From: Candidatus Nomurabacteria bacterium
GTDB lineage: Bacteria; Patescibacteriota; Minisyncoccia; Phycocordibacterales; UBA9973
Reading direction: 5' to 3'
Length of the DNA: 64,000 nucleotides
Assembly: GCA_016699085.1 (NCBI GenBank)
Contig: CP064958.1
Location: forward strand, 131,785 to 195,784
Positions 1 to 7,201 of the stretch are shown piece by piece. Each line of letters starts with the position of its first letter. Position 1 is the stretch's first letter. A model generated the notes under the pieces. The model was not told where the DNA came from. It did no database searches and saw nothing but the letters and a program-made list of their open reading frames with translations. A program made the translations under genes and the position numbers.

Positions 1-253
<253 letters not shown>

Positions 254-264
254 CTACCAATAAC

Positions 265-1389
265 CTATGTAGAATAACCTAAAAACTCCCTCCCAACATC
301 ATTGCGATGGACCGATCTAGAATAGCCTCGCATGCTCATCAAAATACCGAGTGCAGCAAATGAACCAAGTAAATGCGACCCACCATAGCTCATAAATGGA
401 AGTGTTATACCTGTGACTGGCATAAGCCCAATATTCATACCAACATTAATGACAAAATGACTAAAGAAAAAGATAGCGACACCCATGCCATAGAGTATTT
501 CAAAATTGGAATGTCCAACAAGTGCGATTTTCAATATTCGCCAAATCACTATACCGTACAGTGTGAAAAGAATAATCACACCAACAAATCCCCATTCTTC
601 AGCAAATGCAGCAAAAATAAAATCAGTCTGGTACTCTGGCAAAAATTGTAAACGTGACTGTGTGCCATAGCCAACACCTTTGCCAAAAATTTTACCTGAA
701 CCAACAGCAATGGTAGATTGATACGCGTTATAGCCTGAGCCATGAATATCAGCAAGTGGATGGATAAAGTTCACGATGCGATCTCGTTGATACTGTTGGA
801 AAACAAAGAGCCACAATCCAAGGAAAACTATTAGTCCGCCGCCAAGCACCAAGAGAAGATGCTTCTTTGAAATTCCAGAGACTAGTATCATGCCAAACCA
901 AATCAGAAAGATAATGATCGCACTACCAAAGTCAGGTTGTAAAAACACAAGCAAGAATGGTACGAGCGCATAGATGCCAGAAATAAAAATATGTTTAAAA
1001 TGCGCTATCTCCACATGCCGACGCGAGAAATATTTTGCCAAAAGAAGAATGACAATAACTTTCATAAAATCAGTCGGCTGAAATGAGAAACCGCCAAAAT
1101 CAAACCAACTTTGAGCGCCATTGACGACACGACCTACAATAAAAAGTGTTGTGAGTATGGCTAAGAAAAAAATAAAGAGGAGTACTAAGACTTTTGTATT
1201 TTTTAAAATCCGCACATCAATAGCTGAAAGCGTAAAAAAAATAATAATTGAAATCAATATCCATAAAAGCTGTTTATCAAAGAGTGATGTATCCCCTGTG
1301 AACGACCGCATCGTAATAAGCCCTGCGCCTAAAATCGGCATAAGGGCAATAAAAAGTACCCAATCAATTTTTCGAAAAAAAATGCGCAT
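265..1389 (-). CDS. SEDS-family peptidoglycan glycosyltransferase (FtsW/RodA/SpoVE family)
   Basis: 374-aa polytopic membrane protein with a SEDS-like C-terminal block (GVGYGTQSRLQFLPEYQTDFIFAAFAEEWGFVGV...). Confidence 0.85.
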   Translation of the reverse strand: MRIFFRKIDWVLFIALMPILGAGLITMRSFTGDTSLFDKQLLWILISIIIFFTLSAIDVRILKNTKVLVLLFIFFLAILTTLFIVGRVVNGAQSWFDFGGFSFQPTDFMKVIVILLLAKYFSRRHVEIAHFKHIFISGIYALVPFLLVFLQPDFGSAIIIFLIWFGMILVSGISKKHLLLVLGGGLIVFLGLWLFVFQQYQRDRIVNFIHPLADIHGSGYNAYQSTIAVGSGKIFGKGVGYGTQSRLQFLPEYQTDFIFAAFAEEWGFVGVIILFTLYGIVIWRILKIALVGHSNFEILYGMGVAIFFFSHFVINVGMNIGLMPVTGITLPFMSYGGSHLLGSFAALGILMSMRGYSRSVHRNDVGREFLGYST

Positions 1390-1394
1390 AGGGA

Positions 1395-2174
1395 TTATAT
1401 GAGCGGCACACTAAAAATATCGATAAGTGGACGAACGATGGTAAATGCTACTGGAGCAGGAAATGCGTGTGGCCAGGTAAAGAACACTGGCTCAGTCTCA
1501 TTTGATGCTATGTTTTCTAGGTATGTTTTACTCGCCCCGACGAGCGTATTATCTTTATCATACAAAAGTGCAATAACATCAGTACGAGGCAAATCATAGA
1601 GCGATGTATTTTTGATATTTGCAGTAAGCTTGGGTTCAACGCCTTCGTTGGTAAGTACAATATCTAAAGGCACCAGATCAACATCGATCGCTCGTGGATC
1701 AACACGATACCAGACGAGGGGTGTTGTCCAAGCAAAGACGGTGTATTTGGGCGGACGTGTGCCAATATCAATAATAGGTTCAACGATAGTTGTCTCACGA
1801 TTAGGTGGTAGTGTGATACTACCCTCACGTTTGACGATAAATTTATTGGCTTCGTCATAGAGTCTGAATTCATAGGTAGCCTTATAGAGTGCTGATGTAC
1901 GGTTTTGATTCGTCACACTTGCAACAGCCGTATAGAGTGTCGTCGTCACAGGCACTGACCTCGCCCAGACAATAGTCGGTGGTGTTTGGAGATTGGTACA
2001 CTGTATAGCGCAACTACCTCCACAATCAGCGCCTTCTTCGGTGCCATTTTGTTTACCATCAAAACACGTCCCTGGCTTAGTAACCTTAGGTACAATAATA
2101 AGTGCTGCAACGATAAGTCCTGCTGCAGCCAAGAGTGCTAAAACAAAAAGTTGCCTTCTGAGTCTCCAATTCAT
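1395..2174 (-). CDS. Hypothetical membrane-anchored protein (N-terminal TM, then an extracytoplasmic domain with a Cys-rich stretch)
   Basis: 259-aa ORF. A hydrophobic N-terminal helix is followed by a CxxxxC-rich region. Co-directional with and immediately upstream of the SEDS gene. Confidence 0.4.
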   Translation of the reverse strand: MNWRLRRQLFVLALLAAAGLIVAALIIVPKVTKPGTCFDGKQNGTEEGADCGGSCAIQCTNLQTPPTIVWARSVPVTTTLYTAVASVTNQNRTSALYKATYEFRLYDEANKFIVKREGSITLPPNRETTIVEPIIDIGTRPPKYTVFAWTTPLVWYRVDPRAIDVDLVPLDIVLTNEGVEPKLTANIKNTSLYDLPRTDVIALLYDKDNTLVGASKTYLENIASNETEPVFFTWPHAFPAPVAFTIVRPLIDIFSVPLI

Positions 2175-2223
2175 GAAGTAAGTATATAGTATTAGGCTGG
2201 AAGTATAAAGTAAGAAGTATGAA

Positions 2224-2947: not shown

Positions 2948-3183
2948 AATATATTATATGTGATTTCCACATTTCCTAATAGGAATCGAATAATTAGTAC
3001 GTCTCGGCTCAACGCATTACTGCGCGTACACCTAACGCCTATCAACGTGATCATCTCTCACGATTCTCAAACGATTCCTCATCTTGAAGATGGCTTCCCT
3101 CTTAGATGCTTTCAGAGGTTATCCATGCCTGACATAGCTACCCTGCGTTGCCTTTGGCAAGACAGCAGGTACACCAGAGGTCA

Positions 3184-3215
<32 letters not shown>

Positions 3216-3359
3216 ACTTCTCAAGAATCAACGAGTGCAGTAGATAGGAGACCAACCTGTCTCACGACGGTTTGAACCCAGCTCGCGTACCTTTTTAATT
3301 AGCGAACAGCTAAACCCTTGGCAGCTTCTCCACCGCCAGGATAAGGTGAGCCGACATCG

Positions 3360-3665
3360 CTGTCGTTGTATTCTGGGGAGAAATAAATTTTACTTCTCCC
3401 CAGAAGCTTCTATCACTAGAAGGATCGGACTATATCTTCTTCCTCTTTCATATAAATATGAGTAGGAGATTGGCGTGTAGTCTCTGAGGGTTCCACGTGA
3501 GATGGCCGGCTTCGCCTATCTCATGTGGCCTTCCCTGCTGATTGTCTTATCAATGACGATAAGAGTTCCAGCATATAGCCAATTATTTTATTTTCCTCAC
3601 CGCGCTATCTACAACGCGATGAGGAAACGCTAATGACATTACTGTCATGGCACCCCGATATGTTA
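3360..3665 (-). other. Group I intron (ORF-less, ~306 nt) inserted in 23S domain V at the GGCACCU|CGAUGUCGG site (near E. coli position 2500, peptidyl-transferase region)
   Basis: The conserved exon sequence GGCACCT...CGATGTCGGCTC is interrupted by 306 nt. The 5' exon end GGCACCU can pair with the intron-internal GGGUGCC (P1 with a U-G wobble at the splice site). The insert ends in G (omega-G). A P7-like GACTA...TAGTC pairing is present (CAGAGACTACACG / ATATAGTCCGATCC). Confidence 0.6.
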
Positions 3666-3887
3666 AGGTGCCGAACTGCGCCGTCGATATGAACTCTTAG
3701 GCGCAACTAGCCTGTTATCCCCGGAGTAGCTTCTATCCGTTAATCTTCGGCCGCATCTAATGCGGACCATCGGTTCACTATGTTCTACTTTCGTACCTGC
3801 TCGGGATGTACCCCTTACAGTCAAGCTAGCTTGTGCCATTACACTATCGGCACGGTTTCCATACGCGCCTAGCTAACCTTAATAAAC

Positions 3888-3928
<41 letters not shown>

Positions 3929-4229
3929 ACCCACCAGATACTGTTTCTTTGCGTTTTTGCCGCAAGGATTAGAATATGCCACATGAAAGAGTGGTATTGC
4001 ACTGTCGACTCCACAGAAACCGAGATCTCTGCTTCAAAGTCTCCCACTTATGCTACGCAGCCACAAAACATACTCAATACCAAGTTGTAGTAAAGCTTCC
4101 GGGGTCTTTTCGTCTATCTGCACTTAACCGGCATCTTCACCGGTATTGTATTTTCACCGAGCTATTCCCCGAGACAGTTCTCCAGTCATTACACCATTCG
4201 TGCGCGTCGGAACTTACCCGACAAGGTAC

Positions 4230-4271
<42 letters not shown>

Positions 4272-4429
4272 AGGGCTTATATCAGTCAGCTCTTCACAGC
4301 CTTGCGGCTATGAAGAACCGCCGATATTTGACCTTCTCGCATTGGTCAGGTGTCACCCCCTATACATCCTCTTACGAGTTCGCAGGGAGCTGTGTTTTTG
4401 ATAAACAGTTGCCAGAGATACTTTCGCTG

Positions 4430-4748
4430 CGCCCCTTCCTACTTTAGTCTCAATAATTTTAGAATCATTGGAGGCTAAAGAGCATTCAACAATCTTACTC
4501 AATTGTAACTGTTACTTTTCTTTTAGGATCAGATAGGAAAGTTTTGCTCTTCAGAGCATTTTCTCTTTGAAAGAAAATTTCTTTTCCTTGCTTAACTATA
4601 ACAGTATCAATTAAAGTATTGTTTTCATCATAAATCTCAACTTTTGGAGATGTATGATTTTTTTCGCCAATGAATTTTATTGTAATCATTGTTTCCTCCT
4701 TTGTTAATTTTTGAAAAAAAAATTGAGAACAAAGTAGGAAGGGGAAGC
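4430..4748 (-). other. ~270-nt expansion of 23S helix 63 containing a translatable small ORF
   Basis: The region between the conserved CCGTAACTTTGG (E. coli ~1685) and GAAAGTATCTCTGGCAACTG (E. coli ~1750) is ~320 nt versus ~45-60 nt in E. coli. Its two ends are complementary (CCCCTTCCTACTTTG / CAAAGTAGGAAGGGG), forming the helix base. Confidence 0.55.
4495..4689 (-). CDS. Small ORF (64 aa) with a perfect Shine-Dalgarno, embedded in the 23S rRNA helix-63 expansion; function unknown
   Basis: The minus-strand sequence AACAAAGGAGGAAACAATG places AAGGAGG 5 nt upstream of the ATG. The ORF is MITIKFIGEKNHTSPKVEIYDENNTLIDTVIVKQGKEIFFQRENALKSKTFLSDPKRKVTVTIE. No homing-endonuclease motif is evident. 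Confidence 0.35.
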   Translation of the reverse strand: MITIKFIGEKNHTSPKVEIYDENNTLIDTVIVKQGKEIFFQRENALKSKTFLSDPKRKVTVTIE

Positions 4749-5299
4749 CTTATTCCAAAGTTACGGCTGCTTTTTTGCCGAGTTCCTTGGGGAACACTCA
4801 CTCGTTCGTCTTGGTCTTCTCGACCTGATCACCTGTGTCGGTTTGCGGTACGGTTTCTATATCATTAAGCTTAGAAAATTTTCTTGGAAGCGTGCTTTGT
4901 CTCATTGACAGTGGCGAACCACCATCTTTCTACTAACCTTGCATGTGCCATCAAAGGCAATGTGCGGATTTTCCTACACACCACGCTCAGCTCCTAAACA
5001 GAAATCCAATAATCTGCGAGACATACTACCCTTCGTCCTCTCATCGCATAATACAGAAGTGCAGGAATATTAACCTGCTGTCCATCAGGTCCGGCTCTCG
5101 CCATCCCCTTAGGCCCGACTAACCCTTGGCTGATTGTCATAGCCAAGGAAACCTTGATCTTTCGACGGGAGGGACTCTCACCCTCCTTGCGGTTACTTGT
5201 GCCAACATTCTTACTTCGCAACGCTCCACCGTGGGTCACCCCTTCGGCTTCAACGCGGTTACGAATACTCTCCTACCACTCGCGAACTTCATAAAGGAG

Positions 5300-5497
5300 A
5301 CAAGGTGCGTTTGTACACACCTTGCTCTAGAAAAGAAAATTGTATCGGGCACTTGCCTCATGTCGAGTGTCAACATGCGACTCGGCTGGAAGTATTTACC
5401 ACCAATCAAAATACAATCTTCTTTCCAATCTTCCAAAGAACATGGAGTGAATGATCAAATGAATCATTCTTTCTTTAATTTTCAACAAAGAAATTTT
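5300..5497 (-). other. ~190-nt AT-rich expansion segment at the tip of 23S helix 45
   Basis: Conserved ACCGAAACTGAGGATTCGTGAACTTCATAAAGGAGA and TCTCCTTTATGAAGTTCGCGAGTGGTAGGAGAG bracket an extra ~190 nt. The flanks ttcataaaggag / ctcctttatgaa pair as the helix base. Confidence 0.5.
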
Positions 5498-5596
5498 TCT
5501 CCTTTATGAAGTTCACGAATCCTCAGTTTCGGTAGTATGCTTAGCCCCGATTATCTACGGCGCGAGATCTCTTGATGAGTGAGCTGTTACGCTTTC

Positions 5597-5628
<32 letters not shown>

Positions 5629-6134
5629 TCATTGTCTAAGAAATTTCACATCCTCGACTTGCACTTAGCATACATTTAGGGACCTTAAATTGAGATCTGG
5701 GCTGTTTCCCTTTTGACTAACGGAGCTTCGCCCCCGTAGTCTAACTGCCATATTTTTAACTCTTGGTATTCGGAGTTTGATAGATGTCGCGAGATTGCTC
5801 CCTGTCGAAATCTTCCAGTGCTCTACCCCCAAGAGGAACACATGACGCTAGCCCTAAAGCTATTTCGGAGAGAACCAGCTATTACCAAGTTCGATAAGCT
5901 TTTCACTCCAACCCACAAGTCATCCGAGAGTATTGTACGGCTCACCGGTTCGGACCTCCAGCGTGATTTCTCACACCTTCATCCTGCTCATGGGTAGCTC
6001 ACCTGGCTTCGGGTCTCTAGTAGACTACCAATTACGCGCTATTAACACTTGGTTTCCCTGCAGCTCCACTCGTAAGAGTTTAGCTAAGCAGCATACTAGA
6101 ACTCGTTGGCTCATTCTTCAATAGGCACGCCGTG

Positions 6135-6390
6135 ACGGACTGCACACTATGTACATCAAATTTGTATTCTCTGTAATAAACAGGGTCTGATATCAAAACC
6201 CTGTCTTAATGAATTCAAAAAAAATCTATCCGTATATTTTAGGCACTCTCAGTAAATTGCTTCTACGTTTCAATACAATCGAAACATCCACAATTCGCCG
6301 ATATACCTTAGAACACGCACGTTCTAAATGTACGAACCTTTTAAATTCATTACAGAAAATACAAAACGATCTACACAAAGTTCAGCCCGC
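6135..6390 (-). other. ~230-nt AT-rich expansion in 23S domain I/II (between the CCTGAAACC...GGAGC block and the GACCCGAAGCC block)
   Basis: The distance between these conserved blocks is ~380 nt versus ~150 nt in E. coli. The extra sequence includes the hairpin acagggtctgatatcaaaaccctgt. Confidence 0.4.
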
Positions 6391-7201
6391 TCCGACTCCT
6401 TGTAAGCATATGGTTTCAGGTCTATTTCACTGTCCTTATCGGACTACTTTTCACCTTTCCCTCGCGGTACTAGTTCACTATCGATCTCTACACGTATTTA
6501 GCCTTGGCAGTTAGTTCTGCCGGATTCCTCCAAGCTATTCATGTCTTGAAGTACTCAAGAATGACAATAAAAAAGATATACTAATTTCGCTTACCGGGCT
6601 ATCACCGTCTGTGGCGTTGCTTTCCAACAACTTAAACTATTAGTACATTTTGTAACTTTCCACGTAATAAAACGTCATTGTCACCTTACAACCCCGACTT
6701 TATTTCTTGCGAAATAAAATTGGTTTGGGCTATTTCCATTTCGCTCGCCGCTACTTCGGAAATTTTGTCCTTGCGGACTTTGTTTTCTTTTCCTCCAGGT
6801 ACTGAGATGTTTCACTTCCCTGGGTATACTCTCTATTCATAAAGAACAGAGTCATCGAGGTTTACTCGATGGGGTTCCCCCATTCGGAGATCTTCGGATC
6901 AAAAGTTGCTAGGCACTTCCCCGAAGCTTATCGCAGCCTGCTACGTCCTTCATCGCCATGTAGAGTCAAGGCATCCACCATATGCTCTTACTTTCCTATT
7001 AGGAAATGTAAAAACCACATATATGACACATACACACTGGTTCTCAACATGTATGTGTCGGCGTACTCGCTTACTGTATTGCTCCGACCGCTCGTAGTTG
7101 CAATAAGGTTGTACGTTTTCTGTTTCCAGCGATTGAAAAGACCCCTTCGAACTACCCAGGATGAGTAAGTCCGAAAAAATAATTTTGCTGTAACAGGATT
7201 G

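Follow-up and report, generated by a model that had tools for sequence, protein, structure and literature searches.

What is the 306-nt insert that splits the peptidyl-transferase region of this 23S rRNA gene, and does it leave the rRNA? A first-pass annotation, made from the letters of the window (the whole stretch of DNA that was analysed, 64,000 nt), had described it as an ORF-less and probably degenerate self-splicing group I intron. This description can be set against the structure of the host gene, the fold of the insert, and the insertions that other bacteria carry at the same position.

The 23S rRNA gene and its insertions

The Rfam model of the bacterial large-subunit rRNA (LSU_rRNA_bacteria, RF02541) matches the window at 2975-7001 on the minus strand (2241 bits, model positions 1-2925), and a 5S gene, also found with Rfam, comes after the 23S gene at 2717-2822. 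ARAGORN found zero tRNA genes in the 64-kb window, and neither a 16S gene nor a tRNA gene adjoins the 23S-5S pair, which indicates that the rRNA operon is unlinked in this genome. A weak match to the c-di-GMP-II riboswitch model within the 23S gene (3981-4053) scores 22.6 bits, below the threshold of 53.5, with an E-value of 0.22, and was rejected as due to chance.

The 23S sequence is 68% identical to that of E. coli over the aligned columns, and the MAFFT alignment of the two places a 306-nt insertion at window 3360-3665, right after E. coli U2500. These borders are exactly those given in the first-pass annotation, which left unstated that the rRNA and the intron lie on the minus strand. Read on the RNA strand, the junctions are ...GUUCGGCACCU followed by UAACAUAUCGGGGUGCC on the 5' side and CAACGACAG followed by CGAUGUCGGCUC on the 3' side. 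The insert interrupts the conserved GGCACCUCGAUGUCGG, leaving GGCACCU on one side and CGAUGUCGG on the other; the uninterrupted L2500 target site, without the intron, is GGCACCTCGATGTCGG. The break falls between U2500 and C2501, beside A2503-U2506, within the peptidyl-transferase core.

Besides the intron, the gene carries about 800 nt of further insertions with respect to E. coli. The host gene, the intron, and these insertions are as follows:

2975-7001, minus strand: 23S rRNA gene, host of the intron, 4027 nt with the intron and several other insertions (RF02541)
3360-3665, minus strand: predicted group I intron, 306 nt, site L2500 (borders from MAFFT against E. coli; Rfam RF00028)
6640-6690, minus strand: 51-nt insertion after position 292 (E. 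coli alignment)
6125-6400, minus strand: insertion of about 240 nt in the helix 25 region, 540-551 (E. coli alignment)
5225-5535, minus strand: insertion of about 220 nt around 1159-1227 (E. coli alignment)
4405-4755, minus strand: insertion of about 260 nt at 1702/1767 (E. coli alignment)

No intron model of Rfam matches these other insertions. Each of the three large ones folds into a long closed hairpin (z = -10.4, -9.9, and -6.4), and these insertions look like intervening sequences or expansion segments, such as have been reported for the 23S genes of Saccharibacteria (PMC11270868). Inside the insertion at 1702/1767 lies a 64-codon ORF (MITIKFIGEKNH...VTVTIE; window 4495-4689, minus strand), with a strong Shine-Dalgarno-like AAAGGAGG about 7 nt upstream of its ATG. 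This ORF, for which neither a homologue in an index of 5.8 billion proteins nor a Pfam match was found, may have arisen by chance, or it may be an orphan small gene that sits in an rRNA insertion.

The group I fold and its conservation

The first-pass annotation had proposed a covariance-model search as a check, and the result of this search is clearly positive: the Rfam model Intron_gpI (RF00028) matches window 3406-3628 on the minus strand over the full model (1-253), scoring 80.5 bits where the gathering score is 50 (E 7e-19), the alignment having low-confidence stretches in P6 and P8. The folding energy of the insert is -119.5 kcal/mol (z = -10.4 versus shuffles). The insert accommodates P1, P10, the helices from P2 to P9.1, and the terminal G, and the sole mismatch is an A·C in P6a. 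With intron position n corresponding to window position 3666-n, the elements are, in 5' to 3' order of the RNA:

3666-3672, minus strand: 5' exon strand of P1, GGCACCU, in which U2500 is the 5' splice-site U (sequence)
3656-3661, minus strand: intron strand of P10, AUAUCG, intron 5-10 (sequence)
3649-3655, minus strand: internal guide sequence GGGUGCC, intron 11-17, with G11 in the U·G wobble (sequence)
3633-3648, minus strand: P2 hairpin, intron 18-33 (18-23/28-33), with a GUAA loop (fold and compensatory changes)
3592-3627, minus strand: P2.1 hairpin, 13 bp, intron 39-74 (39-51/62-74) (Rfam model, fold, and relatives)
3578-3583, minus strand: 5' strand of P3, AUUGGC, intron 83-88 (covariation)
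3536-3573, minus strand: P4-P5 domain, P4 being 93-98/125-130 and P5 102-108/115-121 (covariation)
3488-3535, minus strand: P6, 131-133/176-178, and a short P6a/P6b extension, 138-173 (fold and covariation)
3478-3484, minus strand: 5' strand of P7, consisting of G182, the A183 bulge, and GACUA 184-188 (sequence; invariant in relatives)
3469-3474, minus strand: 3' strand of P3, GCCAAU, intron 192-197 (partner of AUUGGC)
3441-3467, minus strand: P8 hairpin, intron 199-225 (covariation)
3427-3432, minus strand: 3' strand of P7, UAGUCC, intron 234-239 (partner of G182 and GACUA)
3407-3422, minus strand: P9 hairpin, intron 244-259 (244-249/254-259), with a GUGA (GNRA) loop (covariation)
3371-3405, minus strand: P9.1 hairpin, 12 bp, intron 261-295 (261-272/284-295) (fold and comparison with the relative L048)
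3360, minus strand: terminal guanosine (omega-G, intron 306), followed by the 3' exon CGAUGUCGG (sequence; the intron ends in ...CGACAG)

Three elements that had been picked out at first sight recur in this anatomy. The guide sequence GGGUGCC pairs with the exon GGCACCU to form P1, which places the wobble pair U2500·G11 at the 5' splice site; the P7-like pairing of GACUA with UAGUC falls at intron 184-188 with 234-238; and the intron ends in G. P10 joins its intron strand to CGAUGU of the 3' exon (window 3354-3359) in 6 bp, of which one is a G·U. P7 is extended by G182-C239 across the bulged A183 and is pseudoknotted with P3, and G182-C239, the bulged A183, and G184-C238 are invariant in 14 of 14 relatives. 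By analogy with G264-C311 of Tetrahymena, we take G184-C238 to be the guanosine-binding pair. The peripheral helices of the window intron are P2, P2.1, and P9.1, and it has zero hairpins between P7 and P3'.

A different explanation for the insert would be that it is an intervening sequence, cut out in the manner of RNase III without religation, which would leave a fragmented 23S rRNA. Bacteria with reduced genomes often have intervening sequences that fragment the rRNA (PMC11270868), and the other insertions of this gene, in the helix 25 and helix 45 regions, look to be of that type. However, such intervening sequences consist of a simple long hairpin in place of the tip of helix 25 or 45 and have no ribozyme core, whereas the insert lies at U2500, matches the group I model, complete with guide sequence, P10, and terminal G, and has ends that do not pair together in the supported fold. 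The insert does not have the make-up of an RNase III-processed 23S intervening sequence, and this explanation is very unlikely.

The reading of the insert as a group I intron can be examined further through covariation. The test set consisted of 14 ORF-less L2500 introns of the structural class that has no hairpins between P7 and P3'. A full-length MAFFT alignment, which misplaced P4 in five sequences by matching its 5' strand to P5 extensions, was replaced; pairs were counted on a G-INS-i alignment, trimmed to the core columns of the window intron. Standard pairs fill 99.2% of the core pair cells, and changes on both sides occur at 20 of 36 core pairs. The covariation score is 0.529 compared to 0.174 in shuffles, with none of 500 shuffles reaching the observed value. 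The trimming of the core followed the alignment made for this analysis, which somewhat favours the structure in these figures; however, when the 3' partners were slid by 1-3 columns, merely 34-41% of the cells were paired, and this failure of the slid register to pair argues for a real signal despite the trimming.

The changes are spread over the helices. P3 is 100% paired in the 14 sequences, with double changes at three of its six pairs; P4 is also 100% paired, with double changes at five of six, and is nearly fully rewritten between the forms UGCUGG/UCAGCA and ACGGUG/UACCGU while its pairing is kept. Double changes occur at four of the five counted pairs of P5, at two pairs of P8 (the outer 4 bp of which are 98% paired), and at five of the six pairs of P9, whose L9 loop is a GNRA in 14 of 14 sequences. 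In the periphery, P2 has compensatory changes in the four relatives that possess this hairpin. A full P3-P9 core is recoverable with the support of covariation, which strongly indicates that purifying selection acts on the group I fold and that the element is no decaying relic. The word degenerate in the first-pass annotation holds solely in the sense that an endonuclease gene is lacking; it does not fit the ribozyme core, which is intact and under selection.

Could the insert nevertheless be a splicing-dead relic that the mature 23S rRNA retains as an expansion segment? A precedent may exist in Simkania negevensis, where the group I intron at L1931 of the 23S gene is reportedly unspliced, and the 23S gene of the window tolerates several other large insertions. 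Even so, a structured insert of 306 nt in the peptidyl-transferase core would hardly be compatible with function, and the conservation of all the catalytic elements, together with compensatory changes even in peripheral helices, is unexpected for a relic. Retention in the mature rRNA is therefore very improbable.

Introns at site 2500 in other bacteria

GTDB species representatives were surveyed for 23S 5' exons that end in GGCACCT and are followed by any base except C, which returned 89 stretches, 78 of them true insertions at L2500 with lengths of 211-1050 nt. The remaining stretches comprise, among others, loci truncated at the end of a contig, one adapter artefact, and four point variants at C2501. 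The artefact, in a Legionella MAG (L004), is the Nextera adapter GTCTCTTATACACATCT at the end of a contig; the point variants (L022, L027, L067, and L090) have U, A, or G in place of C2501, with nothing inserted, and come from an Actinomycetes MAG, a Saccharimonadales MAG, Enhygromyxa salina, and one further genome.

The hosts of the L2500 inserts are overwhelmingly CPR/Patescibacteria MAGs, several of which are labelled Saccharibacteria; the others are Coxiella-like endosymbionts, a few gammaproteobacterial MAGs, and one Oligoflexia MAG. Introns thus recur at site 2500 across the CPR and in a few other bacteria. The guide motif GGGGYRY is present near the 5' end in all 78 inserts, the final base is G in 66, and 43 end in GACAG. 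A final A in place of G, typically in ...GGAAUNAUNUA, is found in the other 12 (L008, L017, L038, L039, L040, L050, L062, L068, L073, L074, L087, and L088), which include those of Coxiella-like tick endosymbionts and of some gammaproteobacterial MAGs. The inserts of the Coxiella-like endosymbionts differ in this from that of the window, which ends in G. The A-ending inserts recall the L1917 intron of Coxiella burnetii, which has no canonical terminal G.

Two structural classes of L2500 introns can be distinguished: in most, the P7 5' strand and P3' are separated by two additional hairpins, and a minority of 16 loci, to which the window intron belongs, are without them. Three loci have 23S 3' exons that are 91-93% identical to that of the window, and their introns differ in class, L026 having the two hairpins and L049 and L015 being without them. 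That exons so nearly alike hold different intron classes suggests intron replacement or lateral transfer at site 2500.

Many CPR 23S genes with an L2500 intron have further insertions nearby (e.g., L002, L019, L033, L034, L061, L075, and L089). One such insertion lies 34 nt downstream of L2500, after ...GGAGAA (at about E. coli 2534); another lies 93 nt downstream (site 2593), where BLAST alignments to the window 3' exon break. The window has neither.

An open frame of 190-245 codons is held by about 24 of the 78 inserts, the others being ORF-less. This frame encodes a LAGLIDADG_2 endonuclease (PF03161, E 4e-41), whose closest solved relative is I-SceI (PDB 1r7m, E 7e-16), and a comparison of the ORF-less L033 with the ORF-bearing L077 places the gene in the P6 loop. 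Remnants of the gene were found by tblastn in the ORF-less L040, L070, L084, L034/L061, L082, L069, and L073. The window intron does not belong among the mobile introns with such an I-SceI-like LAGLIDADG_2 ORF. As had been supposed at the outset, it encodes no homing endonuclease: no ORF of at least 60 aa exists within the insert on either strand (the longest has 43 aa), and tblastn with 25 endonuclease proteins of relatives gave no match in the intron or in the whole 64-kb window. A search for a remnant of the gene was also negative, both for the window intron and for the P6 insert (193 nt) that the relative L048 has, and blastn did not match the window intron to anything in a phage collection or in any complete E. 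coli genome. The state of the relatives points to a loss of the endonuclease in the past of the window intron. Since it has no homing endonuclease gene, this intron is presumably inherited vertically or is mobile solely with help in trans.

A related question is whether the intron needs help in trans to splice. Its group I fold might be without efficient self-splicing, so that its removal would need a protein supplied in trans, such as a host RNA chaperone or a LAGLIDADG protein of the maturase type from a gene located elsewhere. Dependence on proteins is frequent among organellar group I introns, and the periphery of the window intron is minimal, with a short P5 that has no P5abc-like extension of the kind found in L007, L020, L049, L063, L076, and L083. 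However, the tblastn search detected no LAGLIDADG gene in the 64-kb window, and the core, the GNRA loops L2 and L9, and the stabilising P9.1 hairpin are intact and conserved. A need for a protein is unlikely and would, in any case, bear on the degree of autonomy of the element and not on its identity.

The closest relative of the window was found in a record of an uncultured Candidatus Saccharibacteria MAG (L048). It is collinear with the window, 91% identical to it in the flanking coding DNA (window 1-2216, two ORFs; the ORF at 265-1389 is RodA) and 97-100% identical in the rRNA exons. The two introns are identical over intron positions 1-138, and their 3' parts are 88% identical, with three compensatory double changes in P9.1 (GGG/CCC to CAA/UUG). 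In P6, L048 has a long hairpin of 193 nt (L048:4633-4825) compared to 34 nt in the window. The two modules have no similarity to each other, the L048 hairpin has no similarity elsewhere, and neither resembles the endonuclease gene that fills the P6 loop of other relatives. P6 seems to be a place where modules land and are readily exchanged. A metagenome contig (L102) has an intron of the L048 type, of 474 nt, with the same start and end, a 100% identical 3' exon, and the L048-type P6 module. The 306-nt variant with the short P6a/b module was found solely in the window.

These relatives also bear on whether the intron was misjoined into the 23S gene during assembly. rRNA regions in metagenomes are prone to chimeras, and the survey itself returned the adapter artefact mentioned above. 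Yet two independent assemblies, L048 from GTDB and L102 from a metagenome, share the intron, its site, and its identical 5' half, the exon adjacent to it is 100% identical in both, and the guide is complementary to this very exon. A chimera is thus extremely unlikely, and there is no positive evidence for this or for any of the three other explanations considered above (fragmentation, retention, and dependence on a protein).

An intron-less allele was sought in metagenome contigs by means of the lineage-specific flanks (GACGGCGCAGTTCGGCACCT with CGATGTCGGCTCACCTTATCC), with 0 matches. The 5' exon alone retrieved 21 metagenome contigs, among which the sole close relative, L102, has the intron and the intron-less contigs share at most 86% of the 3' exon.

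The predicted splicing pathway and its setting

The insert is very probably a bona fide ORF-less group I intron at L2500 of a CPR/Patescibacteria 23S gene, and it would be removed by the standard two-step reaction. In the precursor rRNA, the intron would fold into its P3-P9 and P4-P6 domains, and P1 would arise by pairing of the guide G11-C17 with GGCACCU at the end of the 5' exon, where the 5' splice site would be marked by U2500·G11. The P7 pocket (G184-C238, beside the bulged A183) would hold a free guanosine, which would then attack after U2500. G306 would next occupy the pocket, with P10, formed by intron positions 5-10 and CGAUGU, aligning the 3' exon, and the freed 5' exon would attack after G306. 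The religation of GGCACCU to CGAUGUCGG would restore the strand of the peptidyl-transferase centre.

Splicing is expected from this anatomy, from the insertion site, and from published data on CPR transcripts: the insert splits U2500 from C2501 beside A2503-U2506, and CPR rRNA insertions that have intron-like sequences have been reported to be removed from transcripts, so that removal is the probable fate of this one as well. Catalysis by the RNA itself, its removal in vivo, and its independence from protein helpers are likewise what we would infer.

Such an intron has a well-documented setting. According to the account of Brown et al. (2015) given in PMC11270868, rRNA insertions in the CPR are often group I introns that are removed from the transcripts. 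In the survey of Tsurumaki et al. (2024, PMC11270868), 82% of CPR 23S genes had insertions, 45% of these insertions were group I introns, and 222 of these introns were ORF-less; the sites are biased towards the 3' part of the gene, and some were previously unreported in bacteria. The window intron shares with these introns the host clade, the 3' region of the 23S gene, and the ORF-less type, and among them, too, one site may hold both ORF-less and LAGLIDADG-encoding versions, as is the case at L2500. The text of that survey, as far as it is available, gives sites 23IS9-11 between 1952 and 2593 and does not name site 2500 (PMC11270868). In Candidatus Saccharibacteria, 64 of 66 rRNA insertions are short non-intron sequences (PMC11270868), which makes a group I intron in a Saccharibacteria 23S gene uncommon in those data; in contrast, several Saccharibacteria-labelled species hold L2500 inserts in the GTDB scan.

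Nothing was found in the literature under the name L2500; the site is documented as rrl 2500 in a chloroplast genome paper (PMC2997540). There, the intron Ft.rrl.6 of the Floydiella terrestris chloroplast is given as an ORF-less group I intron of subgroup IB, of 381 bp, at rrl site 2500 (PMC2997540, Table 4). It shares with the window intron the identical E. coli-numbered site and a similar size, and its host is an organelle, unlike the bacterium that holds the window intron. Other bacterial 23S group I introns are those of Thermotoga, Simkania, and cyanobacteria (PMC1995217 for the last).

The insertion sites of the bacterial 23S introns compared here, 1917, 1931, 1951, and 2593, differ from position 2500. 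The introns Cbu.L1917 and Cbu.L1951 of Coxiella burnetii are also of group I, lie in the domain IV/V region of the 23S gene, and belong to a host-associated bacterium with a reduced genome. The omega intron of the large-subunit rRNA gene of yeast mitochondria encodes I-SceI; the ORF-bearing relatives at L2500 have an I-SceI-like endonuclease, whereas the window intron has no such gene. The omega intron is at site 2449, about 50 nt upstream of 2500.

One further possibility is that the intron, a ribozyme without an endonuclease, kept intact by selection, goes beyond the role of a selfish passenger, and that its guanosine-dependent splicing in the peptidyl-transferase region might be a checkpoint that couples the maturation of the ribosome to nucleotide supply or to the growth state. 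This idea is based on the compensatory changes, which extend even to the peripheral P9.1, and on the probably single 23S gene of an epibiotic bacterium. A comparable, growth-modulating role has been proposed for the rRNA introns of Coxiella. We consider such a function in the window's host to be quite unlikely.

For the annotation of rRNA, the design of primers and probes, and phylogeny, the 306 nt at L2500 must be removed. The locus offers a precisely annotated example, with all helices, both splice sites, and the support of covariation, and it illustrates that a group I intron can be recognised from the raw sequence, as it was in the first-pass annotation. The window intron is an expected member of a known intron class.
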